DNA from: a virus | Lineage: Duplodnaviria; Heunggongvirae; Uroviricota; Caudoviricetes | DNA: 30,853 bases | Direction: 5' to 3' (one strand) | IMG/VR virus record: IMGVR_UViG_2619619129_000009 | Made by a program: the position numbers and the translations under genes | Shown here: positions 6,663 to 30,853 of the stretch, in pieces | Position numbering within the stretch: the stretch's first letter is position 1 | How the letters are laid out: every line of letters begins with the position of its first letter | Notes under the pieces: model-generated | What the model was told of the DNA's origin: nothing | Database searches by the model: none | The model's input: the letters and a program-made list of their open reading frames with translations, nothing else

Positions 6663-7262
6663 CTATTTGTCCCGGTTGGCTAAGGGATGACACAATTTAT
6701 TTTTTGTCACGGAGGCGGGGAATTTTTTATAGAGCGTGGACAGGCCAATATCAAAAATCAGTGCCACGCGTTGACGTGATTCCCCTGCAGCCAACAACCG
6801 CCCGGCCTGCTCCCACTCACTCGCGGTGAGTTTCGGACGTCTGCCATCAATACGACCTTTAGCTCTGGCCGCTTCCAGTCCGGCGCGAGTCCGCTCGACA
6901 ATGAGTTCTCGTTCCATTTCAGCCAGGGCACCCATCACATGAAAGAAAAAACGTCCCATCGGCGTGCTGGTATCAATGGCATCCGTCAGGCTGCGAAAAT
7001 TAACGCCGCGTTCGCGCAGTTCCTCAACCAGAATGACCAGATGCCGCATACTACGCCCCAGCCTGTCCAGCTTCCAGACCACCAGAGTGTCACCTGCTGA
7101 TAATGTTCTGAGCAGTTTTTTCAGTCCCGGTCGGTCGGACTTCGTGCCGCTGATTTTATCCTCAAAAATCAGTTCACATCCTGCACACTCCAGCGCATTA
7201 CGCTGCAATTCCGTGTTCTGGTCATTTGTTGACACGCGTACATAGCCAATAAGCATGAGCAT
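6663..7262 (-). CDS. Site-specific DNA invertase, serine recombinase of the Hin/Gin/Cin/Pin family
   Basis: N-terminus LIGYVRVSTNDQN...L.RLGRS is the resolvase/invertase catalytic signature with the active-site Ser in VRVSTNDQ; C-terminal HTH; lies next to an invertible tail-fibre segment. Confidence 0.85.
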   Translation of the reverse strand: MLMLIGYVRVSTNDQNTELQRNALECAGCELIFEDKISGTKSDRPGLKKLLRTLSAGDTLVVWKLDRLGRSMRHLVILVEELRERGVNFRSLTDAIDTSTPMGRFFFHVMGALAEMERELIVERTRAGLEAARAKGRIDGRRPKLTASEWEQAGRLLAAGESRQRVALIFDIGLSTLYKKFPASVTKNKLCHPLANRDK

Positions 7263-7311
7263 CCCCCTGAATAAAAACCGGAGATGATGCCAGTTGCCCG
7301 TTATCTCTGCA

Positions 7312-7337
7312 TTTTCATAAACGTTGGTTTAGGAGAA
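7312..7337. repeat. Left 26-bp inversion crossover site (hix/gix-like)
   Basis: TTTTCATAAACGTTGGTTTAGGAGAA resembles the hix/gix pattern (...AAACC..GGTTT...); matches the reverse complement of the right site at 19 of 26 positions. Confidence 0.6.
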
Positions 7338-7682
7338 GCGGCGAAAAGGGATGTGGGCACAGGAGATAATCAGATACCGGATATGGGAGCATTCGCTTCT
7401 GGTTCGGGATGGTTCAGGCTACCAGGTGGATATATTGTTCAGTTTGGCACTTTTTCAGGAAACACGACCCGCTTTATCAGTGGACACTTCCCTATACCAT
7501 TCCCTAATCAGCCGATGGTTTCAGTCAGTGTTATGTCTGATGCCGTTCAGTCAGACCCGTCGAATCCTGCCCAGCAGGTTTTGTCTGTAAATTTTGAACA
7601 TATCAGTAATTCAGCGTGGCGTGTGGCAACCAGTGATATCTCACAGCAATACAGATTCAGTTATATTTCGATAGGACGGTAG
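7338..7682 (+). CDS. Alternative tail-fibre C-terminal module (Sv'-like), silent in this orientation; expressed only after inversion fuses it to the constant part of H
   Basis: Open frame continuing from the left crossover site; shares the L-G-E codons at the crossover with H; followed by its own assembly chaperone. Confidence 0.55.
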   Translation, partial: AAKRDVGTGDNQIPDMGAFASGSGWFRLPGGYIVQFGTFSGNTTRFISGHFPIPFPNQPMVSVSVMSDAVQSDPSNPAQQVLSVNFEHISNSAWRVATSDISQQYRFSYISIGR

Positions 7683-7684
7683 AA

Positions 7685-8125
7685 ATGCAGAAATATATTT
7701 TCAGTGCCGATAAAAATGCGTTTTTCCCTGTGGAGCTTAAAATCGCTTATCAGGAATCCGGCGAATGGCCCGATGATGGAATCGAAATTGACGACACTGT
7801 TGCCGCCGAATTTATGAAGGAAGCACCAGAAGGAAAATACAGAGGTGTCATCGACGGAATGCCAGCATGGATTGATATTCCACCGCCAACTCATGAGGAA
7901 CAAATTGCCGCAGCCGAACTGGAAAAGCAGCAATTGATTAATCAGGTCAACGAATACATAAACAGTAAGCAATGGCCTGGTAAAGCGGCGATTGGTCGCC
8001 TGAAAGGTGAGGAACTGGCGCAATATAATTTGTGGCTGGATTATCTGGACGCACTGGAGCTGGTCGATACTTCCGGTGCGCCAGATATTGAATGGCCTAC
8101 GCCTCCGGCAGTTCAGGCCAGATGA
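7685..8125 (+). CDS. Tail fibre assembly protein (Tfa/U'-like), partner of the alternative fibre module
   Basis: 146-aa ORF whose C-terminus (WLDYLDALELVDTSGAPDIEWPTPP) parallels the C-terminus of the opposite-strand Tfa (VLDYIDAVTATDTSTAPDVIWPELP). Confidence 0.75.
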   Translation: MQKYIFSADKNAFFPVELKIAYQESGEWPDDGIEIDDTVAAEFMKEAPEGKYRGVIDGMPAWIDIPPPTHEEQIAAAELEKQQLINQVNEYINSKQWPGKAAIGRLKGEELAQYNLWLDYLDALELVDTSGAPDIEWPTPPAVQAR

Positions 8126-8699
8126 CGTCCGGCGCTGTGCTGGTATCTGTTGCCGTCACCGCGTCAATATAATCCAGCACAGCGTTAAGTCGGGTGTTTT
8201 CTGGCTGCGTCAGCTTCCGCCCGGCCTGTAATTTCAGTTGAATCAGACTGATGGAAGCCATTGCAGCATCAATCAGCGACTGGCGCTGTGCTTCTGCCGC
8301 TTCTACTGCGGCGCTATGCTGTGCCTCGGTATCCGTCACCCATTTCTCACCATCCCATTTATCGTATGGCGTTAATGGGGCGATAGTGGTTGTATTTTCA
8401 GGGTAATCACCCGGAACTGTGATTTCTTTGGTATCTCCCGTTTCGGTACTATAGACAACTTCACCGCGATGGTCTGGCACATATTCCCATGAATTTAAAT
8501 CTACAGAGCGACAGATTGCATAACCAGCTTTATGTGTACCTGGTGCATCCAAACAGGAACATGCCGGGATACCGACGCCGACAGCGAGATATTCAGTTGA
8601 TGTAGAAATATATTCCCGCGTTTCGCCATCATAGTTATGTACGATGATTTCCCCATCATTTAAAGCGTAACCGTCTTTTCCCAAAATAGCCTGTTCCAT
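8097..8699 (-). CDS. G: Tail fibre assembly protein G (Tfa), 200 aa
   Basis: Immediately downstream of H on the same strand; conserved Tfa C-terminal motif. Confidence 0.8.
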   Translation of the reverse strand: MEQAILGKDGYALNDGEIIVHNYDGETREYISTSTEYLAVGVGIPACSCLDAPGTHKAGYAICRSVDLNSWEYVPDHRGEVVYSTETGDTKEITVPGDYPENTTTIAPLTPYDKWDGEKWVTDTEAQHSAAVEAAEAQRQSLIDAAMASISLIQLKLQAGRKLTQPENTRLNAVLDYIDAVTATDTSTAPDVIWPELPEA

Positions 8700-9980
8700 T
8701 TATGCAGCCCTCACAATGTAGTTAAACGCAATGTTCCGAGGTCGAGTTTCCCCTGAAACTCTTGGAACCCCACCATTAAAAGCTCTACCAGAAATTTTAT
8801 TGATTAAATCACTATCACCAGTGAACTCCGCGCTTCCATCTGGAATTGCAACATTGCCTCCACCTGCACCAATAAATCGCAGTCTTATAGCTTTATGGCC
8901 GTGGTCTTGCAATGCGTCGCCTTGAACAGACAGAATAGTCCTTCCACTATCCACCCCACGCCCGTCATCCCATCCACGGATAAACTCACCGCGCAAATCT
9001 GGTAATTTTAACTCTGGGTAAGCCTTTGCCAGTTCCGGGTATTCTTCAGCAGAAAAAGCCGCACCATTGCATTTCAACCAGCCTGTTGGCGGAGTGGCTG
9101 AAGGCCACGGAACAGGCACCCCAACAGGTAATGCTGAGCCTTCTCCCAAATCAAGGTATGCGAGAAGACCGGCAACATCCTTTCCACTCAAATGAGTCAG
9201 CGTCTCATCCAGTGGCTGCTTACCTGACAGCGCATTGTTAATGGTGGTGCTGAATTTCGGGTCATTGTTAATGGCCGCGGCAATTTCTTTCAGTGTGTCC
9301 AGCGTGGCTGGCGCGCCGTTAATCAGAGCGGTAATAGCAGCCTGAACAAACTCAGTGGTCGCAATCCGCGTGGTGTTATTTCCTGCGGCAGGCGTCGGCG
9401 CTTTTGGTTCTCCGGTAAATGTCGGATTATGTTTCTGCGCATACTGGGTATGAGGGTCCTGTGCGGCAATGTGTTTGCTCATCTGGTCATCCACATACAG
9501 CCTTAATTCCAGGACTTCATCATCCACGTATTTACGGGTCGCCAGTACCACCGACGGGTCGATTTTCAGCGTGATAGCTTCGGTATTCGTGACAACCAGA
9601 ATCATGCGGATAGTCTGGGTACGACCACTGCCTTCCTGCAACTGCGGTTTGTACGTTTCCGGGCAGTTCGCCACCGCAATGAGTACGCCTTCATCATCAT
9701 AAAGCCCAATCTCACGGATCCAGAATCCGCCCTCGTTCTCAGGGATGATTTGCTCCGCAATAATCTGGCTCTGGTTGTTCGGGTCAACACTCAGAAGATT
9801 CAGCGGCGCGATGCGTTTCTGGTTAATCAGTTTTGTCTGTGCCGGGTCTGGTGTCGGCAAGACACCATTCGCATCACCAACGGCCATTTGCGTCAGATTC
9901 AGCTTACTGCCGAGCATCGTCGCGTTAGCCAGCCGTGCTGCGCCCTGATTAGTCAGAATGGCGTAGTATTTCACTGTCAT
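8700..9980 (-). CDS. H: Tail fibre protein H in its current orientation: constant N-terminal part (about residues 1-280) plus variable C-terminal module, 426 aa
   Basis: Position between I and G; the crossover site lies inside the gene at codons L278-G279-E280. Confidence 0.85.
   Translation of the reverse strand: MTVKYYAILTNQGAARLANATMLGSKLNLTQMAVGDANGVLPTPDPAQTKLINQKRIAPLNLLSVDPNNQSQIIAEQIIPENEGGFWIREIGLYDDEGVLIAVANCPETYKPQLQEGSGRTQTIRMILVVTNTEAITLKIDPSVVLATRKYVDDEVLELRLYVDDQMSKHIAAQDPHTQYAQKHNPTFTGEPKAPTPAAGNNTTRIATTEFVQAAITALINGAPATLDTLKEIAAAINNDPKFSTTINNALSGKQPLDETLTHLSGKDVAGLLAYLDLGEGSALPVGVPVPWPSATPPTGWLKCNGAAFSAEEYPELAKAYPELKLPDLRGEFIRGWDDGRGVDSGRTILSVQGDALQDHGHKAIRLRFIGAGGGNVAIPDGSAEFTGDSDLINKISGRAFNGGVPRVSGETRPRNIAFNYIVRAA
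9141..9166. repeat. Right 26-bp inversion crossover site, inside H
   Basis: TTCTCCCAAATCAAGGTATGCGAGAA; inverted relative to the left site, 19/26 identity; encodes the ...DLGE... junction in H. Confidence 0.6.
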
Positions 9981-18740: not shown

Positions 18741-18913
18741 TGTCAGGAGTCCTGAATAGTGATTAGAGGAGTCACATGTCGGCATCAGTTTCCCGACGAT
18801 GCACATCCTCCGCCATCAGTCCCGGATGGCTTATCACTGACACAACAGCACCTTAGCGAATCGCGGGGCGCGACTCAGTAGCCTTGCCGTGTATTCATCA
18901 CGGCGAGGTATTC

Positions 18914-20686
18914 ATGACCATCACCACAGACACCACTCTTTTACACGACCCGCGTCGTCAGGCGGCGCTGCTGTACTGGCAGGGGTTTTCCGTGCCGCAG
19001 ATTGCCGCCATGTTGCAGATGAAACGCCCGACGGTGCAGAGCTGGAAACAGCGCGACGGCTGGGACAGCGTTGCCCCCATCAGCCGTGTCGAAATGAGTC
19101 TGGAAGCGCGGCTGACCCAGCTCATCATCAAACCGCAGAAAACCGGCGGGGACTTCAAGGAAATTGACCTGCTGGGACGCCAGATTGAACGACTGGCACG
19201 GGTCAACCGTTACAGCCAGACCGGCAACGAGGCAGACCTTAATCCGAACGTCGCTAACCGCAACAAAGGCGAACGCCGCAAACCGAAAAAGAATTTTTTC
19301 AGTGACGAGGCCATCGAAAAGCTGGAGCAGATTTTCTTTGAGCAGTCTTTCGAATATCAGTTGCACTGGTATCGCGCCGGGCTTGAGCACCGCATCCGCG
19401 ATATCCTGAAATCCCGCCAGATTGGCGCGACGTTTTATTTTTCCCGCGAGGCGCTGCTGCGCGCCCTGAAAACCGGTCATAACCAGATTTTTCTGTCGGC
19501 CAGTAAAACGCAGGCGTATGTGTTCCGCGAATACATCATCGCCTTTGCCCGGCTGGTTGACGTTGACCTGACCGGTGACCCGATTGTCCTGGGCAATAAC
19601 GGCGCAAAACTGATTTTTCTCGGCACCAACTCCAACACCGCGCAGAGCCATAACGGCGACCTGTACGTCGACGAGATTTTCTGGATCCCGAATTTTCAGG
19701 TACTGCGTAAGGTGGCATCAGGTATGGCCTCACAGAGTCACCTGCGTTCGACCTATTTCTCCACCCCGTCCACGCTGGCGCACGACGCCTACCCGTTCTG
19801 GTCGGGTGAACTGTTCAACCGGGGACGCGCCAGCGCCGCCGAACGCGTGGAAATCGACGTCAGTCATAACGCCCTTGCCGGTGGGCTTCTCTGTGCAGAC
19901 GGCCAGTGGCGGCAGATTGTCACCATTGAGGACGCGTTGAAAGGCGGCTGCACGCTGTTCGACATTGAGCAGCTCAAACGTGAAAACAGCGCCGACGATT
20001 TTAAAAACCTGTTCATGTGTGAATTTGTTGACGACAAGGCGTCGGTGTTCCCGTTCGAGGAGCTGCAACGCTGCATGGTCGACACGCTGGAAGAATGGGA
20101 AGACTATGCGCCGTTTGCCGCGAATCCGTTCGGCTCCCGCCCGGTATGGATTGGTTACGACCCGTCACACCGTGGCGACAGCGCCGGATGCGTGGTACTG
20201 GCACCGCCGGTGGTGGCCGGTGGCAAATTCAGAATACTTGAGCGTCACCAGTGGAAAGGCATGGACTTTGCCACTCAGGCGGAATCCATCCGCAAACTCA
20301 CCGAAAAATACAACGTCGAATACATCGGTATTGATGCCACCGGCCTCGGTGTCGGCGTGTTCCAGCTCGTGCGCTCGTTCTATCCCGCCGCGCGTGATAT
20401 CCGCTACACGCCGGAAATGAAAACCGCAATGGTGCTCAAGGCAAAAGACGTTATCCGCCGTGGCTGTCTGGAATACGACGTCAGCGCCACCGACATCACC
20501 AGCTCGTTTATGGCTATCCGCAAGACCATGACCAGCAGCGGACGCAGCGCCACCTATGAGGCCAGCCGCAGCGAGGAAGCCAGCCACGCCGACCTCGCCT
20601 GGGCGACCATGCACGCCCTGTTAAATGAGCCACTCACCGCCGGTATCAGCACCCCGCTGACATCCACCATTCTGGAGTTTTACTGA
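18914..20686 (+). CDS. P: Terminase large (ATPase) subunit P, 590 aa from Met MTITTDTT
   Basis: Trimmed ORF gives the P2 gpP length; upstream of Q on the same strand. Confidence 0.85.
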   Translation: MTITTDTTLLHDPRRQAALLYWQGFSVPQIAAMLQMKRPTVQSWKQRDGWDSVAPISRVEMSLEARLTQLIIKPQKTGGDFKEIDLLGRQIERLARVNRYSQTGNEADLNPNVANRNKGERRKPKKNFFSDEAIEKLEQIFFEQSFEYQLHWYRAGLEHRIRDILKSRQIGATFYFSREALLRALKTGHNQIFLSASKTQAYVFREYIIAFARLVDVDLTGDPIVLGNNGAKLIFLGTNSNTAQSHNGDLYVDEIFWIPNFQVLRKVASGMASQSHLRSTYFSTPSTLAHDAYPFWSGELFNRGRASAAERVEIDVSHNALAGGLLCADGQWRQIVTIEDALKGGCTLFDIEQLKRENSADDFKNLFMCEFVDDKASVFPFEELQRCMVDTLEEWEDYAPFAANPFGSRPVWIGYDPSHRGDSAGCVVLAPPVVAGGKFRILERHQWKGMDFATQAESIRKLTEKYNVEYIGIDATGLGVGVFQLVRSFYPAARDIRYTPEMKTAMVLKAKDVIRRGCLEYDVSATDITSSFMAIRKTMTSSGRSATYEASRSEEASHADLAWATMHALLNEPLTAGISTPLTSTILEFY

Positions 20687-21720
20687 TGAGCAAGAAAAAA
20701 GGGAAAACACCGCAACCTGCGGCAAAAAAAATGACCGCCAGCGCCCCGAAAATGGAGGCATTCACCTTTGGTGAGCCGGTGCCGGTACTCGACCGCCGTG
20801 ACATTCTGGATTACGTCGAGTGCATCAGTAACGGCAGATGGTATGAGCCACCGGTCAGCTTTACCGGTCTGGCAAAAAGCCTGCGTGCTGCCGTGCATCA
20901 CAGCTCACCGATTTACGTCAAACGCAATATTCTGGCCTCGACATTTATCCCGCATCCGTGGCTTTCCCAGCAGGATTTCAGCCGCTTTGTGCTGGATTTT
21001 CTGGTGTTCGGTAATGCGTTTCTGGAAAAGCGTTACAGCACCACCGGTAAGGTCATCAGACTGGAAACCTCACCGGCAAAATATCCCCGCCGTGGCGTGG
21101 AAGAGGATGTTTACTGGTGGGTGCCGTCCTTCCATGAGCCGACACCTTTCGCGCCCGGCTCCGTGTTTCACCTGCTGGAGCCGGATATTAATCAGGAGCT
21201 GTACGGTCTGCCGGAATATCTCAGCGCCCTTAACTCTGCCTGGCTGAATGAATCAGCCACGCTGTTCCGCCGCAAGTATTACGAAAACGGCGCTCATGCC
21301 GGATACATCATGTACGTCACTGATGCCGTGCAGGATCGCAACGATATCGAAATGCTCCGCGAAAACATGGTTAAGTCAAAAGGCCGCAACAACTTTAAAA
21401 ACCTGTTTCTCTATGCCCCACAGGGAAAAGCCGACGGCATTAAAATTATCCCGCTCAGTGAAGTGGCGACGAAGGACGATTTTTTTAATATCAAAAAAGC
21501 CAGTGCCGCAGACCTGCTGGACGCGCACCGCATCCCCTTTCAGTTGATGGGCGGCAAGCCGGAGAACGTCGGGTCGCTGGGTGATATTGAGAAAGTGGCA
21601 AAGGTCTTTGTCCGCAATGAGCTTATCCCGTTACAGGACAGGATCCGCGAGATAAACGGCTGGCTCGGTCAGGAGGTCATCCGCTTTAAAAACTACTCAC
21701 TGGACACTGACAACGGCTGA
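20686..21720 (+). CDS. Q: Portal protein Q, 344 aa
   Basis: 344-aa ORF, matching P2 gpQ length; start overlaps the P stop; next to cos. Confidence 0.9.
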   Translation: MSKKKGKTPQPAAKKMTASAPKMEAFTFGEPVPVLDRRDILDYVECISNGRWYEPPVSFTGLAKSLRAAVHHSSPIYVKRNILASTFIPHPWLSQQDFSRFVLDFLVFGNAFLEKRYSTTGKVIRLETSPAKYPRRGVEEDVYWWVPSFHEPTPFAPGSVFHLLEPDINQELYGLPEYLSALNSAWLNESATLFRRKYYENGAHAGYIMYVTDAVQDRNDIEMLRENMVKSKGRNNFKNLFLYAPQGKADGIKIIPLSEVATKDDFFNIKKASAADLLDAHRIPFQLMGGKPENVGSLGDIEKVAKVFVRNELIPLQDRIREINGWLGQEVIRFKNYSLDTDNG

Positions 21721-21725
21721 ACATC

Positions 21726-21747
21726 GCCGCCTGCGGGCGGCTTTTTT
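21726..21747 (+). terminator. Rho-independent terminator after Q
   Basis: GC stem gccgcc/ggcggc with a 4-nt loop, followed by TTTTTT, right after the Q stop codon. Confidence 0.6.
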
Positions 21748-21889
21748 ACAGCCCGTCATCACGCCCTCACACACTCACCACCGCACAAAACAGCCCGCAG
21801 ACACACCAACGCCCCGGCGCACAATCTAAACGCCATCACGACGCGCTCAGACGCTGAAAAAATAAAATCAGCACCACCGCCAGCGCGCA

Positions 21890-21908
21890 GTGCTTTCCCC
21901 GCCTCGCC
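21890..21908 (-). other. cos: cos cohesive-end sequence
   Basis: Plus strand GTGCTTTCCCCGCCTCGCC is the reverse complement of GGCGAGGCGGGGAAAGCAC, which I recall as the 19-nt P2/186 cohesive end; lies beside Q as expected. Confidence 0.6.
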
Positions 21909-22093
21909 CGCCCGCTTCATGGGGCGTTTTTAATGCAGTTGCATGAACACTCCAAGAGCACACCATCGCTAGTGATAACTAACAATAAAAGCGACTTCTG
22001 ACGCATGCAAATCCATGCACATGATGGCATTTTTCATGATCTATGCGGTATGCTATCCGCTTCAATTTTTAACACTTGTTAAGGGAGCTAGAC

Positions 22094-23236
22094 ATGGACA
22101 TTATTGATTTAAAATCTCAACTAGAAAATGAAGATAATGCCAAGAAAAGAGCAGAGTTGCTTGCTCAGCTAGAGGTGATAAAGCAAAACGCTGAAGAGCA
22201 AATTCGTGCTGAGCAAAAGGATGTGGATTTTGAGACCAAAGAATTTACCGTTGAGTTATTAGTTAATAAGTATCATAGCGGATTAGAGGATGATACTAAC
22301 GAACTCTTTGTTCCTGATTATCAAAGGGATTTTGTTTGGAGTGAAAAAAGACAATCAAGATTGATAGAGTCTTTGATTTTGGGTTTTCCTATACCATATA
22401 TATTTACAGCAGATGTTCTCTCCGAAGATCCCGATTTAGATGGGCGAATTGAGATTGTTGATGGCTCACAGCGAGTTAGGACTATACACGCTTTTATCCA
22501 AAATGAATTAGTTTTACAAGATCTGAAATCTTTAGACGCCCTTAATGGTTTCAAATTCCAAGATTTACCATTATCACGTCAACGTCGTTTCATGAGAATT
22601 CCTGTCCGCGTTATAGAATTGAGTTCTAAATGCAATGAAGAAACCCGTAGAGATCTTTTTGAACGTATTAACTCTGGCAGCGATATATTGAAAGATATGG
22701 AAGTCCGTAAAGGATCAGAACTTGGTTCAACAAATTTATATACACAGGTTATTAAGCCATGCTCAACAATACCTAAATTTAAAGAATTAGCCCCTTTATC
22801 TCAGACTAAAGAAAAACGAGATGAACGGTTAGAATTTACATTAAGATTCTTTGCCTACTTAGATAAGTACAAGAACTTTGATCATTCCGTACGGGATTTT
22901 CTAAATGACTATATGTTAGAAAATCGAGATATAGACGAAACTAAACAAAACTCAATGAAACAAGAGTTTGCTAATGTTCTATCTTTTGTTGATAACTATT
23001 TCCCAGCAGGATTCAAGAAAACTATTACTGCAAAATCTACACCTCGAGTTAGATTCGAATCTCTCGCTGTTGGCGCAGCACTTGCATTACGTGAAATCCC
23101 TGACCTTGTTCCCAAGAACTTGGATTGGCTAAGCTCAGAAGAATTCAAACGATTGACCACTTCAGACGGAGCTAATAGTCGCGTGAAGGTAATTGAACGA
23201 ATTGAATATGTTCGGGATAAATTATTAGAGGATTAA
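22094..23236 (+). CDS. DUF262 (ParB-like / GmrSD N-terminal domain) protein, about 380 aa; candidate defence NTPase/nicking component
   Basis: Motifs PDYQRDFVW and IVDGSQRVRT (DGQQR-like) seen in the translation; start chosen at the ATG 8 nt after an AGGGAG Shine-Dalgarno; AT-rich relative to the phage backbone. Confidence 0.7.
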   Translation: MDIIDLKSQLENEDNAKKRAELLAQLEVIKQNAEEQIRAEQKDVDFETKEFTVELLVNKYHSGLEDDTNELFVPDYQRDFVWSEKRQSRLIESLILGFPIPYIFTADVLSEDPDLDGRIEIVDGSQRVRTIHAFIQNELVLQDLKSLDALNGFKFQDLPLSRQRRFMRIPVRVIELSSKCNEETRRDLFERINSGSDILKDMEVRKGSELGSTNLYTQVIKPCSTIPKFKELAPLSQTKEKRDERLEFTLRFFAYLDKYKNFDHSVRDFLNDYMLENRDIDETKQNSMKQEFANVLSFVDNYFPAGFKKTITAKSTPRVRFESLAVGAALALREIPDLVPKNLDWLSSEEFKRLTTSDGANSRVKVIERIEYVRDKLLED

Positions 23237-23237
23237 C

Positions 23238-23918
23238 ATGGATCGTTTTCGTGAGGATTTTGACGAAAGGTCAGGAGAGATCTTGGCCTATTTAGATCTT
23301 TTGAAATTTATTGAGTATGCCGGTGCAGAACTGATATCATCTGATGATAAAGAACATAAGTTCTCCATTACTGCTCAATCACGAAAAACTCTAAAGGGGG
23401 CAGTATATATTCTATTATATAACCTCATTGAATCAACAATGAGAGAAGCTATCTGCCTTATTCATGAGACTATTTATGATAGAAACGTAGAATTTGACAA
23501 ACTCAGGAAAAATATCAGGTCAGAAATATTAAAAAGATTAAAAAATGAATCTGTAAATATTGAAAGTTTAGTTAACCGTCTTACTAAAGGTATATCTTGC
23601 GGTATATCTTATGGCACTTTCAACAAAAAGAAAATATTCTCAGGAAATATTGATAGAGAGGAAATCAAAGAAAAATCGAAAATATATGGTTTTTCAACAT
23701 ATTCTGATTACACTCACACTAAACATGGTGAAAAATTAGCCACTGTCAAACAACATCGTAATGATTTATCTCATGGCAATGTATCATTTGCTGAGATTGG
23801 AAAAAATGTTTCATATCAGGACTTAGAGAATATTTCATTAGAAGTAATCGCCTATCTTGATGCAATCGCGAATAATATAGAGCACTATATAAATAATAAT
23901 GAATATTTAGAACAATAG
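23238..23918 (+). CDS. HEPN-like putative nuclease, 226 aa, translationally coupled to the DUF262 gene
   Basis: C-terminal HRNDLSHG contains an R-x4-H HEPN-type motif; start codon 1 nt after the upstream stop with a GAGGA RBS; family assignment is from recalled pattern, not a search. Confidence 0.5.
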   Translation: MDRFREDFDERSGEILAYLDLLKFIEYAGAELISSDDKEHKFSITAQSRKTLKGAVYILLYNLIESTMREAICLIHETIYDRNVEFDKLRKNIRSEILKRLKNESVNIESLVNRLTKGISCGISYGTFNKKKIFSGNIDREEIKEKSKIYGFSTYSDYTHTKHGEKLATVKQHRNDLSHGNVSFAEIGKNVSYQDLENISLEVIAYLDAIANNIEHYINNNEYLEQ

Positions 23919-23924
23919 TAATAA

Positions 23925-23947
23925 GGCCTGCAAAGCAGGCCATTTTA
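23925..23947. terminator. Bidirectional rho-independent terminator between the convergent HEPN and methyltransferase genes
   Basis: Perfect stem ggcctgc / gcaggcc with loop aaa, flanked by T-rich runs on both strands. Confidence 0.65.
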
Positions 23948-24973
23948 TCATTCTAAATGGTTCTTGATTGATTGCCCAATTGCTTTTCCTAGTTCCACAG
24001 GAACAGCATTACCTATCATTTTCCCAATACTTCTTATAACAAACTTGTCTTTGTCTTCTACAAAGATATAATCCATCGGAAAAGTTTGCAATAAAGCAGC
24101 CTCTCTAAGAGAAATCGCTCTATGCTGTTCTGGATGTCCAAAACGTCCATTTCCGAAACCATAACAAAGAGTTGTAATTGTTGGACTCGGCTTATCCCAA
24201 GACATGCGCCCATATACACTAGCATATCCTTTACCGCTAGATTTCATATGACAAGCAGCAATCAGCTCCTTCGGCCAGTCCTTCCATGTACCACCAGGAA
24301 CAGAGTGTATAATTCTTTTTTTATTAATCGGATTTAATTTACTGGCTCTATGTAATATATCATTTGGATCTGTTTGGCCATCTTCTAACGGAGGAAGATT
24401 TCCTATTGCATCTCTAACTGTTTTCAAAATAACATCGTCACGTTTTACTAACTCAATCGCCCCCAATTTTGAAGCCAACAATACATGACGGGAACGGTTT
24501 TGTGGGATTCCATATTCGACACAATCAACCTTCGACGCCCAAACATAATAGCCCAACTTTAACAATGAATTATAAAAATCATTATAAACTTTATGTTTAG
24601 TTACATCAGGAACGTTCTCCATTGTTACGATTTCTGGAGATACTTCGCGAATTAAACGTTCGAACTCATAAAGAAGAGGCCATTTTTTATCATCAGCCTT
24701 ATCTTTTCCTTGAGTATATTTTGAAAAAGGTTGGCAAGGTGCGCATCCTGCCAATACTTTTACAGACGCATCACCATAAAGCCTCAGCAGTTCCTCTTTT
24801 GTTACTTTAGCGATATCTTGCTCAATAAACTTAGATTTATTGTTTCTTTCATAGGGAAACCGACATTCCCCCTCAAGGTCTATGCCTGCAACGACATCAA
24901 GCCCCGCAAGCTGTAAACCATGAGTTAATCCGCCAGCACCACAAAAAAGGTCTATCACCTTTACAGTCATCAT
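23948..24973 (-). CDS. DNA (cytosine-5)-methyltransferase, 341 aa
   Basis: Motif I DLFCGAGG, motif IV GCAPCQPFS (catalytic Pro-Cys), motif VI ENV (TMENVPD) seen in the translation. Confidence 0.85.
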   Translation of the reverse strand: MMTVKVIDLFCGAGGLTHGLQLAGLDVVAGIDLEGECRFPYERNNKSKFIEQDIAKVTKEELLRLYGDASVKVLAGCAPCQPFSKYTQGKDKADDKKWPLLYEFERLIREVSPEIVTMENVPDVTKHKVYNDFYNSLLKLGYYVWASKVDCVEYGIPQNRSRHVLLASKLGAIELVKRDDVILKTVRDAIGNLPPLEDGQTDPNDILHRASKLNPINKKRIIHSVPGGTWKDWPKELIAACHMKSSGKGYASVYGRMSWDKPSPTITTLCYGFGNGRFGHPEQHRAISLREAALLQTFPMDYIFVEDKDKFVIRSIGKMIGNAVPVELGKAIGQSIKNHLE

Positions 24974-25056
24974 TCACTCCAAATCTATACGATGCTCAGT
25001 ATACATCCCTTTCTACAAAATCTCGAGGCCTAACTTATAAACTCCTATTGATTGAG

Positions 25057-27396
25057 TTAACGCTTCACTGAGTTTGACTCTAATACTGTTGAGAATCCCG
25101 GCCACTCATCAGCGACCTGATAAGTAAAATGTTTCCCGTCATAATTTACGGTCGCCCCACGCGCCAGCGCCTCAAGCTCCCATCGCTGCGGCCTGATACC
25201 GTTCTGAGCGAGGTCAACGCGGATACGGGTAATTTGCATTCGTTCCGACCGGGTCAGTCTGGCCGATGGTGCCATTTCATACTGTTTTAACGGGCTTCCG
25301 TTTCTCTGCTGACGATTTGGTGTTCTCAGCCCGTGTTTTAATGCGCCCCTGAGCGCCCTCACGACCTCCGGGTCATTCCATTCGATAACACCGTCATCAA
25401 CCAGATTAAGCACTGCTGCGGCGTGCTCAGAAGGCGTGGGAGCCGGTAACGAAGTATCACCGCTGGTGAGCTTTCCACAGTTATTGACAGGACTCCGAGG
25501 CGCGGCGATGCCGCTTTTTAAAGTCAAAGGCTCAACGACCGGAACTTTCGGCACAATGCGCCAGTCCGTCGTTCTGGTGATATGAATATGACGCGCGCCG
25601 AGATGCGGCGCGTAAATGCCGACCACTCTCTCGACCTCTTCCTCGTACTCGTTAACGTCATCCGACAGACTACGGGCGACCCTGACAGTCTGACAATCGC
25701 GCGGGACATTTGCCCCACCCTGCGCGCTGATATACAGCGCAAAATCACCACTGTCTGCGGCGGCGCGTGCAGCCTCGACGCGCTCGTCAAACTCATCAGC
25801 AATGCTGACGCCGCGAGGCAATTTGCGTAGTTCACGGTAAGCCCCCATTGTCGGCAGGCCAACCGTTTTAAATTGCGGAATGCGCCACGTTGACGCCCAT
25901 GCGGTAACAGCCGCTGCAGTGTCTTTCAGCGGCCTGCCGGTGTCGTTATCGAGCTGACCATCCAGTGCATAGCCGTCGATGTTTTTTGAAATGTATTTCG
26001 CGATATATCCCGCAGCACCGCCCCGGTTAAGGTGTTTTGCCTGAAAACGGTTTCGCGCGGCTCCTCTTTCGTCGCCATCCTCTTTGAGCGCATAGCGACG
26101 CATGATTTCGATAATCTGGTTACGCTGGCGTGGATGACAAAAAAGCATCATATGCCAGTGCGGCGTTCCGTCGTGGTGTGGCTCGACGACTCGCAAACCG
26201 TAGACCTGTAAATCATTATCCTTGAATGCCGTGCGCATCAGGCTCCAGATACGGCAGAGATAACGCTGCGCATCCTTTGGATTAAATGCCTCATCGTTCC
26301 AGCCGTGATTAAGCTGAACGGTTTTACTTTCGCCTTTTCCGACCTGACGTGTCGGGTGATACTTTGACGGCGCGGTCAGCGTGATAAACATCCCCACATC
26401 ACCCTCTGCGGCGGCGTAACGCTCAATACCGGCAATGGTGTTCATCAGCTCCATCCGGCGAATTTCAGGATTAGAAATACTGCCCATCACCTTACTGATA
26501 AGGTCGATGCGCTCGCCGGTTTCCCTGTTTTCAAGGTCACACGATTTAAGAAATTCCAGATTTGCCTGGCGGCGCGCACGCACATCACGAATGGCGTGTT
26601 TACTGGCATAAGGAGAACGGTCTTTATTGACCTCCCCGACAGCTATCAGTAACGCCTCATGCCAGCGCATACGCTGGCCTTTAAGCTGATGAGTCCACCA
26701 CTCATCGTTAAACAGGCGGGCAATGGCAGAATATGCCTGCCTCGTGGTCATCTGTCCTTTACGGTATTTTTTCCAGTAGAGCGGGGAAATATTGAAAGCA
26801 CGTGCAGCGCCAGCAACATGACCATACAGGTGAGCCTGCGCCTCATCCGTAAACAGCGATTCTTTTTCACCATGCGCATCCACCCATGCATCGCAGAGTT
26901 CCTCATACATCATGAAAAGCTGCGATGAGATACGGGCGGCAAACTTTTTCAGCTCCTTGTCATTCATTCCCGGCAGGCGCGCATAGTGGTCACGCTCTGC
27001 CAGAAACAGCAACGACGCGTCGGTGTTCATTTCATGGCGCTGATTCACACGCTCAATGCGCGGCCATAAACGACGCTGAAAAGTAGATGTGAGGAAATAA
27101 AACCCGTGCACCGGGCTTTTATTGCGCCGGATGTAGTCATAGCGTGAAGTAAACAGCGAGCGCAAAAAGTAAGGCAGGCGGTTAATCGTGGATAAAACAC
27201 CTTGCACCTGACGCATCTCGTCACGTGTAAGAGGTCTTTCGCGCCCGACAGCCTCGCGTGGCGCGTTCCATGCATAAGCACCGGTAAACGCCTTACCGGT
27301 GCCTGCGGCAAATGCTGACGGAGGGACAAAACGCCCGGAGGCTTTAACGGCCATATGAGCCAAAAGCCTCTGAACAACGCCTGCTGAGTTGCTCAA
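25057..27396 (-). CDS. A: Replication initiator A (rolling-circle HUH endonuclease); 779-aa ORF, true start possibly the internal Met at 27354
   Basis: HUH motif (PHWHMMLF) and tyrosine motif (YIAKYISKN) seen; size and position match P2 gpA. Confidence 0.85.
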   Translation of the reverse strand: MSNSAGVVQRLLAHMAVKASGRFVPPSAFAAGTGKAFTGAYAWNAPREAVGRERPLTRDEMRQVQGVLSTINRLPYFLRSLFTSRYDYIRRNKSPVHGFYFLTSTFQRRLWPRIERVNQRHEMNTDASLLFLAERDHYARLPGMNDKELKKFAARISSQLFMMYEELCDAWVDAHGEKESLFTDEAQAHLYGHVAGAARAFNISPLYWKKYRKGQMTTRQAYSAIARLFNDEWWTHQLKGQRMRWHEALLIAVGEVNKDRSPYASKHAIRDVRARRQANLEFLKSCDLENRETGERIDLISKVMGSISNPEIRRMELMNTIAGIERYAAAEGDVGMFITLTAPSKYHPTRQVGKGESKTVQLNHGWNDEAFNPKDAQRYLCRIWSLMRTAFKDNDLQVYGLRVVEPHHDGTPHWHMMLFCHPRQRNQIIEIMRRYALKEDGDERGAARNRFQAKHLNRGGAAGYIAKYISKNIDGYALDGQLDNDTGRPLKDTAAAVTAWASTWRIPQFKTVGLPTMGAYRELRKLPRGVSIADEFDERVEAARAAADSGDFALYISAQGGANVPRDCQTVRVARSLSDDVNEYEEEVERVVGIYAPHLGARHIHITRTTDWRIVPKVPVVEPLTLKSGIAAPRSPVNNCGKLTSGDTSLPAPTPSEHAAAVLNLVDDGVIEWNDPEVVRALRGALKHGLRTPNRQQRNGSPLKQYEMAPSARLTRSERMQITRIRVDLAQNGIRPQRWELEALARGATVNYDGKHFTYQVADEWPGFSTVLESNSVKR

Positions 27397-28931: not shown

Positions 28932-29125
28932 TTCCATACCCTCCGGCTTTTCAGAAAGGTCAGAGCCTTTTTTAACGGACTCTGTTTTTTGGTGCGGATA
29001 ATGATTCCCTTACGCCCCTTACCGTGGGTGATGGTGAAGTCAATCGCCCTGGGGCTTTCGTTACGCAATAACTGAGCAATACAACGCGGCTCATTCATAA
29101 TCACAACCCCATCCACAAAAGCCAT
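28928..29125 (-). CDS. Hypothetical early-operon protein (P2 orf78 position), 65 aa
   Basis: Small basic ORF between cox and B. Confidence 0.4.
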   Translation of the reverse strand: MAFVDGVVIMNEPRCIAQLLRNESPRAIDFTITHGKGRKGIIIRTKKQSPLKKALTFLKSRRVWK

Positions 29126-29388
29126 GCATCACGCTGTTCAACCGGTCGGTTATAAAACGCCTCACGTACAGCGCGATTAAACTCAGGAATGAAAACCCAT
29201 TTTTCACCGGCACGAGCCTTCGGTTTGCAAGGATCACGCAATTCAATAATTGGTAATTTATTTGCCTTCACCATTTCACTGACGGCTGTCTTTGGCTTCC
29301 CTAATAAATCAGCAAATTTATCCACATGAACCGCATCAAGCGGATACTGAATCACATAATTTTCAGCGTCCATATATGGTACCCTCAT
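29101..29388 (-). CDS. cox: Cox-like excisionase / transcriptional regulator
   Basis: First gene of the early operon, divergent from the repressor; C-terminal motif RAGEKWVFIPEFN...RDAWLLWMGL resembles my recollection of P2 Cox. Confidence 0.7.
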   Translation of the reverse strand: MRVPYMDAENYVIQYPLDAVHVDKFADLLGKPKTAVSEMVKANKLPIIELRDPCKPKARAGEKWVFIPEFNRAVREAFYNRPVEQRDAWLLWMGL

Positions 29389-29509: not shown

Positions 29510-29803
29510 ATGAAATTAAGCGAAAAGATTAAGGCCTTGCGTGAGGCTGAAGGGCTAAGCCAATCAAAATTCTGTGAAATCATAGAGTTACCGCTAAGCA
29601 CACTTAAAAAATATGAAGGAGGAAACTTTGAACCCGGTGGCACAGCTTTGCTAAAAATCACTATGCATCCCACATTCCAAAAATATGCTCTATGGCTTAT
29701 GACAGATAAAACCGCGCCGGACGCAGGACAAATCGCACCGGCTCTCGCGCACATTGGGCCAGAGTCAACAGAGTCCAACCACTCCGCGAAAAGGATTGGC
29801 TAA
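29510..29803 (+). CDS. C: Immunity repressor C (HTH), 97 aa
   Basis: Small ORF divergent from cox and upstream of int; HTH-like segment LSQSKFCEIIELPLSTLKKYE. Confidence 0.75.
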   Translation: MKLSEKIKALREAEGLSQSKFCEIIELPLSTLKKYEGGNFEPGGTALLKITMHPTFQKYALWLMTDKTAPDAGQIAPALAHIGPESTESNHSAKRIG

Positions 29804-29842: not shown

Positions 29843-30853
29843 ATGGTGAATACAGCGCCGGAGGGCTTTCTTATGGCAATTAAGAAGCTCGATGATGGTC
29901 GCTATGAAGTGGACATTAGACCTCGCGGTCGCGACGGAAAACGCATCCGCAGGAAATTCGAAAGAAAAGCTGAAGCACTAGCATTTGAGCGATACACAAT
30001 CGCCAATGCCAGTCAGAAAGAATGGGGAGGCCAGCGAGCAGACCGCCGGACTTTGAGTGAGTTGCTGGACATCTGGTGGAAATATCACGGGCAAAACCAC
30101 GAGCATGGAACAAAAGAGTTTAATCATCTACTCAAAACCATCAGCGGCATAGGTGATATACCAGTGAGCAGGATGAGCAAAAGGGCTTTGATGGATTATC
30201 GTTCCATGCGACTACGTGATGGTATCAGTGCCGCAACGATAAACCGTGACATGTACCGATTATCCGGCATGTTCACAAAATTAATTCAATTGGATGAATT
30301 TTCCGGGCAACACCCAATTCACGGACTGCCGCCACTGGCGGAGGCCAACCCTGAAATGACGTTCCTGGAAAAAGCAGAAATCGAAAAACTATTAAATGTT
30401 TTGGCTGGTGATGACTTACTTGTCGCGCTTTTATGTCTGAGCACCGGAGGAAGATGGACGGAAGTTGCCACGCTAAAACCAGCACAGATTACAAATTGCA
30501 GGGTTACCTTCCTGAAAACCAAAAACGGTAAAAAGCGAACCGTGCCGATTTCTGAGGAACTGGAGAAAAAAGTTAAAGAGGAGGCCAGCGCCAAATTATT
30601 CAAAGTTGATTATGAGAAATTTTGCGGGATTTTACGCAGAGTGAAACCTGATATACCACCCAATCAGGCAACCCACATCCTGCGGCATACATTCGCAAGC
30701 CATTTCATGATGAATGGGGGCAATATAATCGCACTGCAACAGATTCTGGGACATGCGAGCATTCAGCAGACGATGGCCTATGCGCACCTTGCGCCTGACT
30801 ATCTGCAAAATGCCGTCGCTCTGAATCCACTAAAAGGCGGAGTGACGTTATAA
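29843..30853 (+). CDS. int: Tyrosine integrase (alternative start at 29873, MAIKKL)
   Basis: C-terminal catalytic region HILRHTFAS...GHASIQQTMAYAHL carries the R/H/Y tyrosine-recombinase residues; last gene before the window edge. Confidence 0.9.
   Translation: MVNTAPEGFLMAIKKLDDGRYEVDIRPRGRDGKRIRRKFERKAEALAFERYTIANASQKEWGGQRADRRTLSELLDIWWKYHGQNHEHGTKEFNHLLKTISGIGDIPVSRMSKRALMDYRSMRLRDGISAATINRDMYRLSGMFTKLIQLDEFSGQHPIHGLPPLAEANPEMTFLEKAEIEKLLNVLAGDDLLVALLCLSTGGRWTEVATLKPAQITNCRVTFLKTKNGKKRTVPISEELEKKVKEEASAKLFKVDYEKFCGILRRVKPDIPPNQATHILRHTFASHFMMNGGNIIALQQILGHASIQQTMAYAHLAPDYLQNAVALNPLKGGVTL

Follow-up and report, generated by a model that had tools for sequence, protein, structure and literature searches.

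The stretch of DNA analysed here—called the window throughout, 30,853 nucleotides (nt) of the IMG/VR virus record IMGVR_UViG_2619619129_000009 (Caudoviricetes)—is a P2-like prophage shown in reverse orientation. Between its portal gene Q and its replication endonuclease gene A lies a cargo island with three genes: a pair encoding a DUF262/ParB-like protein and a HEPN-domain protein, and, facing this pair, the gene of a C5 DNA cytosine methyltransferase, in the following referred to as the methylase (Table 1). The three genes very probably form one functional unit. Within this unit, the comparison of sequences strongly supports the methylase as the companion modification gene of the cassette and not as a stand-alone phage anti-restriction enzyme.

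Table 1. Features of the cassette and of the surrounding prophage in the window (aa, amino acids)
Feature	Positions	Strand	Basis or remark
Terminase gene P	18884-20686	+	Upstream of the portal gene
P2-type portal gene Q	20686-21720	+	Pfam Phage_portal; left flank of the hotspot
Conserved P2 backbone, portal to cargo	21721-22022		Terminator-like hairpins 21724-21741 and 21909-21926
Low-GC cargo island with three-gene cassette	22023-25056		Composition profile
DUF262/ParB-like protein, NsnA-like over its full length, 380 aa	22094-23236	+	Predicted nucleoside triphosphatase (NTPase) and DNA-modification reader
HEPN_MAE_28990 family protein, 226 aa	23238-23918	+	Predicted RNase effector; begins 2 nt past the DUF262 stop codon
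Bidirectional intrinsic terminator hairpin	23925-23941	both	GGCCTGC-AAA-GCAGGCC; 7-bp stem, 6 GC pairs
C5 DNA cytosine methyltransferase, 341 aa, ATG start	23948-24973	-	Pfam PF00145, NCBIfam TIGR00675, motifs
Weak sigma-70-like promoter match upstream of the methylase	24998-25026	-	TCGAGA-17-TATACT, 9/12 matches
P2 replication endonuclease gene A	25057-27396	-	Pfam Phage_GPA, E 3e-124; flanks the hotspot on the right and shares the strand of the methylase
cox	29101-29388	-	P2 backbone
Repressor-like helix-turn-helix gene	29510-29803	+	P2 backbone
Integrase	29843-30853	+	P2 backbone

The methylase matches the Pfam model PF00145 (DNA_methylase) with an E-value of 4.4e-58 and 197.7 bits—against a cut-off of 22—over its residues 5-337 and the model positions 2-323/324, and the NCBIfam model TIGR00675 (dcm) with 128.7 bits against a cut-off of 100.65. 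Its translation bears FCGAGG at residues 10-15 (motif I), PCQ at 79-81 with the catalytic Cys80 (motif IV), ENV at 119-121 (motif VI), QNRSR at 158-162 (motif VIII), and GNAVP at 321-325 (motif X). Hence, the call of a C5 methylase in a first-pass annotation of this DNA, made from FCGAGG, PCQ, and ENV, is borne out by both models and by the translation. Across 39 orthologues, PCQPFS and ENV are invariant, and GNAVP is found in 38 of them. The highest conservation, with a mean column conservation of 0.79-0.90, falls on residues 221-300, a stretch with motif IX and the putative target-recognition region; in the catalytic N-terminal half, the values are 0.59-0.80. As residues 221-300 are the best conserved ones, the methylase family would appear to share one recognition motif. 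A sequence search of the PDB did not name a target motif: only the catalytic core aligned to M.HaeIII and M.HhaI, and the C-terminal region of residues 211-339—including motifs IX and X—matched DNMT1. Neither was one given by the names in the source databases, which are generic, or by NCBIfam, which points to the dcm superfamily only.

Vsr enzymes accompany C5 methylases and repair the T:G mismatches that arise from deamination of 5-methylcytosine (5mC). Three independent loci—of Pseudomonas aeruginosa (L087, 7028-7438), of a virus (L119, 6447-7022), and of Pyrinomonadales (L079, 8665-9072)—have a Vsr gene within the cassette or adjoining it, and in two of the three this gene sits directly between the HEPN and methylase genes. 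Since Vsr accompanies C5 methylases, these genes argue for real 5mC in the host genome, the activity of the methylase on DNA itself being predicted.

For the DUF262 protein, the mechanical call of the open reading frame (ORF) opens at a TTG at 22076. The ATG at 22094 is the likelier start: it is preceded by the Shine-Dalgarno sequence aagggag, and the resulting 380 aa agree with the PGAP call in a relative and with the length of most database homologues. The protein matches the NsnA model with an E-value of 2.1e-54 and, more weakly, the PADLOC model PD-T4-2_A (5.3e-35); the PADLOC model 'REase_II' matches its DUF262 region only (3e-5). Domain searches found no DUF1524/HNH nuclease domain joined to DUF262, and a profile search of the PDB with the DUF262 alignment returned only a remote DUF262 protein of 818 aa. 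The HEPN protein belongs to the MAE_28990 family and has the Rx4-6H motif. For this protein, PADLOC returned nothing even at E <= 10—nor did it for the variants at loci L081 and L085 at E <= 0.01—and the HEPN alignment, used as a profile against the PDB, gave no match. No PD-(D/E)xK, HNH, GIY-YIG, or PLD domain was found in either protein, and the sole predicted catalytic effector of the pair is hence the RNase-type HEPN domain. The earlier description of the pair as nuclease-like therefore holds in the RNase sense only: it fits the RNase-type fold of HEPN, and it does not extend to the DUF262 protein, in which no nuclease domain is detectable. PHROGs labels both partner proteins as of 'unknown function', and RefSeq names the three genes separately.

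The methylase and HEPN genes converge, and the 29 nt between their stop codons contain the terminator hairpin of Table 1, which carries T-rich tails on both strands, is called as a terminator on both strands by the scan, and shows a z of -5.0 for the 56-nt fold. The convergent arrangement with a terminator in common, as described in the first-pass annotation, thus stands. An ORF of 65 aa at 23746-23943 on the minus strand, which runs across the terminator and into the 3' end of HEPN, was dismissed as a chance ORF in AT-rich DNA.

Two readings of the methylase had been offered from this arrangement: either it protects as the modification component of a restriction-modification (RM)-like module with the pair as effector, or it is an independent orphan that shields phage DNA from host restriction and merely adjoins an unrelated, modification-dependent nuclease. 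The proposed check—co-occurrence of the three genes across genomes—was run with a scan for HEPN relatives in one genome per species (185,579 species), which gave 474 relatives, of which the best 80 loci were analysed. A DUF262 gene lies directly upstream of the HEPN gene in all of these 80 loci. An orthologue of the window methylase (50-87% identity) adjoins the pair in 35 of 78 informative loci; two of the 45 methylase-negative loci (L004 and L062) are uninformative, as the contig ends at the HEPN gene. The methylase-positive loci span Gammaproteobacteria (Tatumella, Methylococcaceae, Motiliproteus, Vibrionaceae, Cellvibrionaceae, and Pseudoalteromonas), many Cyanobacteria—among them Microcystis aeruginosa (L040)—Bacteroidales, Acidobacteria, and Planctomycetes. 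In these species genomes, the linked methylase is nearly always convergent with the pair, and the gene ends touch or overlap. In four loci the order differs: three have a co-directional methylase upstream, and in the fourth it lies downstream on the same strand; hence, the linkage is more than inherited synteny. In IMG/VR, 43 loci were found, and every contig reaching past the HEPN gene (41/41) carries the methylase. Among them are six loci in which the methylase comes first, as well as HEPN variants that share no more than 28-33% identity with the query.

The converse search leads to the same trio. Three methylase homologues had their context looked up, and all three lie beside a HEPN_MAE_28990 gene: one (72% identity) in an Escherichia coli P2-like prophage, as a second allele in the P2 hotspot, one (72%) in a Klebsiella prophage with a P2-type replication/packaging module—both with an intact GmrSD_N/DUF262 gene—and one (60%) in an integrative island of P. 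aeruginosa. In the latter, the contig breaks off within the gene upstream of HEPN, and this gene was recognised as DUF262-like only in our own search. The commonest close DUF262 homologues likewise belong to trios, spaced as in the window, in a lambdoid Klebsiella prophage and in Salmonella P2-like prophages. In the lambdoid prophage, from Klebsiella pneumoniae (L132, 5001-7886), the cassette sits in the nin region between the replication genes and the RusA and antiterminator genes, with gene order, sizes, and spacing as in the window and a DUF262 protein 85% identical to that of the window. In the index of the assembly collection, this protein appears in 487 blocks; Klebsiella thus has it far more often than E. 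coli has the window allele. The pair thus carries a linked methylase on every mobile element examined (P2-like prophages, lambdoid prophages, and the integrative island).

Variation is also seen among the enterobacterial copies. At least two further trio alleles occupy the P2 hotspot of E. coli, in 4 and 3 of 5426 complete genomes (L081, 6001-8987; H51-H57), and 16 E. coli genomes bear one variant or another. At a Salmonella locus (L137, 6933-7973), an insertion sequence (IS) with an rve transposase lies between the HEPN and methylase genes, in a Klebsiella copy (L134, 6346-6828) HEPN is truncated to 160 aa, and in many Salmonella assemblies HEPN is present only as fragments of 57-129 aa at the ends of contigs. 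Such damaged cassettes could reflect IS insertions or mere assembly breaks.

The pairwise distances of the methylase correlate with those of DUF262 (Mantel r = 0.94) and of HEPN (r = 0.88), and none of 2000 permutations reached either value; as part of these correlations must reflect shared phylogeny, they serve as supporting evidence only. Taken with the co-occurrence, they make it very improbable that the methylase is an independent orphan. Such an orphan would be expected to occur without a fixed effector neighbour, whereas this methylase lies beside HEPN_MAE_28990 in all three looked-up cases and with the pair in all informative viral loci; moreover, the trio is conserved in non-phage chromosomal contexts of five phyla, and the convergent junction with its overlapping gene ends is conserved as well. 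What speaks for an orphan is that the methylase lies on the early-operon strand directly after gene A, that related P2-like prophages do bear true orphan methylases in the early operon—for example, the D12-class gene in L135—and that the added 5mC could have the side benefit of shielding DNA from some host enzymes. The reading as a companion modification gene is thus favoured by the trio counts and by the co-variation, and the orphan reading is not supported. Judged by their distribution, the three genes are one mobile module that moves among prophages and bacterial chromosomes.

A cassette of this type has been described before. Anantharaman, Makarova, Burroughs, Koonin, and Aravind (2013, Biol Direct 8:15, PMC3710099) list an operon of MAE_28990 HEPN, ParB, and DNA methylase as a computational entry in their Table 1. 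The same three components are found in the window: a MAE_28990 HEPN with Rx4-6H and adjoining ParB-like and methylase genes; the window HEPN matches the Pfam model built for the MAE_28990 family, and the namesake organism M. aeruginosa is among the methylase-positive loci. The entry, however, is one line without experiments, phage context, or methylase-less lineages, and its mechanism is only the generic 'multi-pronged RM plus HEPN'. Our literature searches found this paper as the only one naming the MAE_28990 HEPN family and found no experimental study of the methylase/DUF262/HEPN trio; the main text of Rousset et al. (2022) mentions neither DUF262 nor a methylase.

PD-T4-2 of E. coli ECOR65 consists of DUF262 and HEPN genes, and its 1.8-kb clone without a methylase protects against T4 both in K-12 and in the native strain (Vassallo et al. 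2022, PMC9519451). Like the pair in the window, it is a two-gene operon in E. coli with DUF262 followed by HEPN, although its ORFs span 1540 bp as compared with 1825 bp in the window and no methylase is present. Its component A model is matched by the window DUF262 protein, whereas its component B model does not detect the window HEPN. PD-lambda-5 from the same study combines a ParB-like protein with a D12 N6-adenine methylase and is called a 'compacted RM+Abi' prophage system by its authors; for its ParB-like protein, they report remote, low-probability HHpred hits only (DUF4145, 35.6; HEPN_RiboL-PSP, 8.0) (PMC9519451). Like the window cassette, PD-lambda-5 is prophage-borne and joins a ParB-like protein to a DNA methylase in a small module, and its defence is broad and validated; the likeness considered here is that of shared domain types. 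In contrast to the cassette, PD-lambda-5 consists of two genes, its ParB-like protein would itself contain whatever HEPN-like region there is, and its methylase modifies adenine at N6 instead of cytosine at C5.

The DUF262 protein of the window is further a full-length homologue of NsnA of the Menshen system (NsnABC; Millman 2022), with ParB-DUF262 and a helical ParBDB-type C-terminal half. Unlike Menshen, the cassette bears neither the NsnB ATPase—no ATPase gene is present in the island—nor the NsnC effector, and has HEPN instead. Li et al. (2025, PMC12065111) describe NsnA as a ParB-DUF262 sensor and raise the question whether a linked methylase may direct DUF262 against genomes that lack the modification; BREX, Type I/III R-M, or methylase genes are linked to about 28% of the Menshen loci (PMC12065111). 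DUF262 as a reader of DNA modifications, a predicted role in the cassette, is common to it and to SspABCD-SspE, DndBCDE-DndI, and GmrSD/BrxU. Ssp and Dnd encode the reader together with the enzymes of the self mark, which is phosphorothioate there and would be 5mC in the cassette. GmrSD and BrxU, on the contrary, attack modified DNA and have no partner methylase. The readers SspE, DndI, and GmrSD/BrxU bear a DUF1524/HNH DNase or nickase, whereas none is detectable in the window DUF262 protein.

From these parts a methylation-gated system can be put together, in which 5mC is the self label, DUF262 the reader, and HEPN an RNase effector that is freed by unmarked DNA; to this outline we would give an even chance. 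The methylase would place 5mC at one fixed motif in the resident chromosome and the prophage DNA, a step that is supported by its fold and catalytic motifs, by the well-conserved target-recognition region, and by the occasional Vsr genes. The DUF262 protein, a predicted NTPase with a helical DNA-binding C-terminal domain and without a nuclease domain, would sense the methylation state of DNA, as homology to its solved relatives BrxU, SspE, and DndI—readers of DNA modifications—suggests. On unmarked DNA, such as that of an incoming phage, it might activate its co-translated HEPN partner, which in turn would cleave RNA, block phage growth, and probably cost the infected cell. Methylation would then be a self label as in RM, with an RNase in place of a DNase as executioner. 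In its strict form—an RM-like immunity in which the DUF262 NTPase reads unmethylated DNA and triggers HEPN with no cleavage of DNA at all—we hold this proposal only tentatively.

The parallel to Ssp and Dnd allows for the opposite logic: DUF262 might bind the host 5mC, which licenses or positions the complex, so that the mark is required and the pair is inert without the methylase. This appears unlikely, since pairs without a methylase retain intact motifs under purifying selection—hard to explain if they were inert—and PD-T4-2 is active without one. Section 10 of Anantharaman et al. (PMC3710099) proposes for RM-linked HEPN genes a PrrC-like guard, in which the methylase and a ParB DNase form a first-line RM system and HEPN, kept inactive by the two, fires once a phage disables them. 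Some ParB-fold families do have nuclease activity. For the window, this arrangement seems decidedly improbable: no nuclease or DUF1524/HNH domain is detectable in the DUF262 protein, the alignment to the predicted sensor NsnA covers the whole protein, and the DUF262 and HEPN genes are translationally coupled and never found apart (80/80 loci).

The methylation-gated reading itself has to be weighed against several observations. First, in about 40 loci of a cyanobacterial clade no methylase is found within about 7 kb of the pair, where strict RM logic would predict its loss to be lethal. The pairs of this clade nevertheless retain all motifs of both the DUF262 and HEPN proteins, and their ratio of nonsynonymous to synonymous substitution rates (dN/dS) of 0.08-0.48 denotes purifying selection, as compared with 0.05-0.25 in methylase-positive loci. 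Likewise, L012 has an intact pair beside a methylase remnant that is truncated at its 5' end, and PD-T4-2 defends without any methylase. Finally, the methylase of the E. coli locus L081 is close to that of the window (72% identity, distance 0.27) while its pair is very divergent (distance 0.55 for DUF262 and 0.76 for HEPN), which suggests that methylase and pair are exchangeable as separate modules.

In a neighbour-joining tree of the DUF262 proteins, the methylase-positive state is found in all phyla, and the methylase-negative loci form one derived cyanobacterial clade in addition to the pair L011/L012. The pairs of this clade adjoin housekeeping genes, namely the aconitase gene acnB in Nostocales (L022, L025, L033, L037, L041, L050, and others) and clpB in Microcoleus (L053, L060, L070, and L072); SecA, CarB, CobN-type chelatase, and ABC transporter genes are further neighbours. 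This fixed position in Nostocales and Microcoleus looks like vertical inheritance and domestication. In the Microcoleus loci L049, L057, L063, L064, L071, and L077, DUF262 is cut to about 180 aa and HEPN is of full length. A methylase of another type was looked for in the methylase-less loci and set aside: the immediate neighbours are housekeeping genes, and a crude motif screen gave candidates in only three loci, several kb off. L074 has an unrelated C5 methylase 2.6 kb from the pair.

Hence, the pair can exist and be selected without a linked methylase, as shown by the intact clade under purifying selection and by the action of PD-T4-2. An unlinked methylase of the same specificity could reconcile this clade with strict RM logic, and cyanobacteria are rich in conserved solitary methylases. 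One fixed motif of the family might possibly let hosts with a matching housekeeping methylase—such as this clade—keep the pair and drop the linked methylase. The cassette is, as far as its sequence indicates, not a classical RM system, because no DNase fold is detectable and intact, selected pairs occur without a linked methylase. A classical Type II system would have a recognisable DNase fold and would never lose its methylase beside an intact effector; here no such fold was recognised, and the methylase has been lost beside intact effectors, at least as a linked gene. Of the reading as an RM-like module, the companion modification gene therefore stands by its co-occurrence and co-variation, while the classical RM system with a nuclease effector does not.

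The orientation of the genes might add a temporal element. In the P2-like prophages, that of the window included, the methylase comes after gene A and runs in its direction, and one to three small genes sometimes separate the two; in the lambdoid Klebsiella prophage, it is co-oriented with the replication and nin genes, and the pair lies opposite. As the methylase runs with the early/replication operon and the pair against it in both prophage types, early lytic transcription may boost the methylase and so mark the replicating phage DNA. The pair would use a promoter of its own, active in the lysogen. As the scan of the window predicts no terminator for the interval from gene A to the methylase, transcription of the early operon may read through. 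The promoter scan around the cassette, to which the weak match upstream of the methylase belongs, is uninformative, with 12 matches against 10.2 expected by chance.

The cassette lies at the gene A-portal hotspot of P2-like prophages. Its cargo island has about 35% GC, as compared with about 55% in the flanks and the genome. A sequence search found the complete island in no deposited phage record and, of 5426 complete E. coli genomes, in only 9; each of these has all three genes, and one of the copies is 89% identical. The roughly 302 nt between the portal gene and the island are probably cos-proximal, to judge by the P2 map; P2-like phages and 2156 of the 5426 E. coli genomes match them at 90-97% identity. 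Phage P2 itself carries tin and old at this site. The site has been established as a defence hotspot in which many defence systems were found (Vassallo et al. 2022, PMC9519451; also Rousset et al. 2022). Leftward of terminase gene P, the window bears the scaffold, capsid, and tail genes.

Two further regions of these prophages deserve mention. At 6663-7262 of the window, a serine recombinase/invertase gene (Pfam Resolvase and HTH_7) adjoins a short ORF for a tail-fibre C-terminus and two oppositely oriented tail-fibre assembly genes (together 6663-8699), with the main tail-fibre gene just past this segment at 8700-9980 and a lower GC content in the region (0.47-0.49). The segment looks like an invertible host-range switch of the Mu G/P1 C type. 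Upstream of gene A, the early operon of a Salmonella P2-like prophage holds a D12-class (Dam-like) methylase (L135, 10970-11143), and that of E. coli GN04592 holds a gene of the phosphoadenosine-phosphosulfate reductase family (L131, 12364-13371). Unlike the cassette methylase, these early-operon genes are candidates for true orphan or anti-defence functions.

The cassette type was already predicted in 2013, and the linkage was known in outline; potentially new are the methyl mark that would gate an RNase and the natural lineages without a methylase. Being one module, the three genes should be called jointly by annotation software and defence finders. PADLOC v2, which lacks a model of the HEPN component, would return either no result or only stray NsnA and MTase_II matches. 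The cassette is compact (about 3 kb), lies in a proven defence hotspot, and is widespread: HEPN relatives number 474 in the genomes of 185,579 species, and hundreds of assemblies from Klebsiella and Salmonella as well as two prophage families add to this range. The natural methylase-less clade offers a ready comparison for how such systems lose their modification gene. If the proposed mechanism is true, it would join self-recognition by DNA methylation to an RNA-targeting effector—a combination for which PD-lambda-5 has been described in related terms by Vassallo et al.

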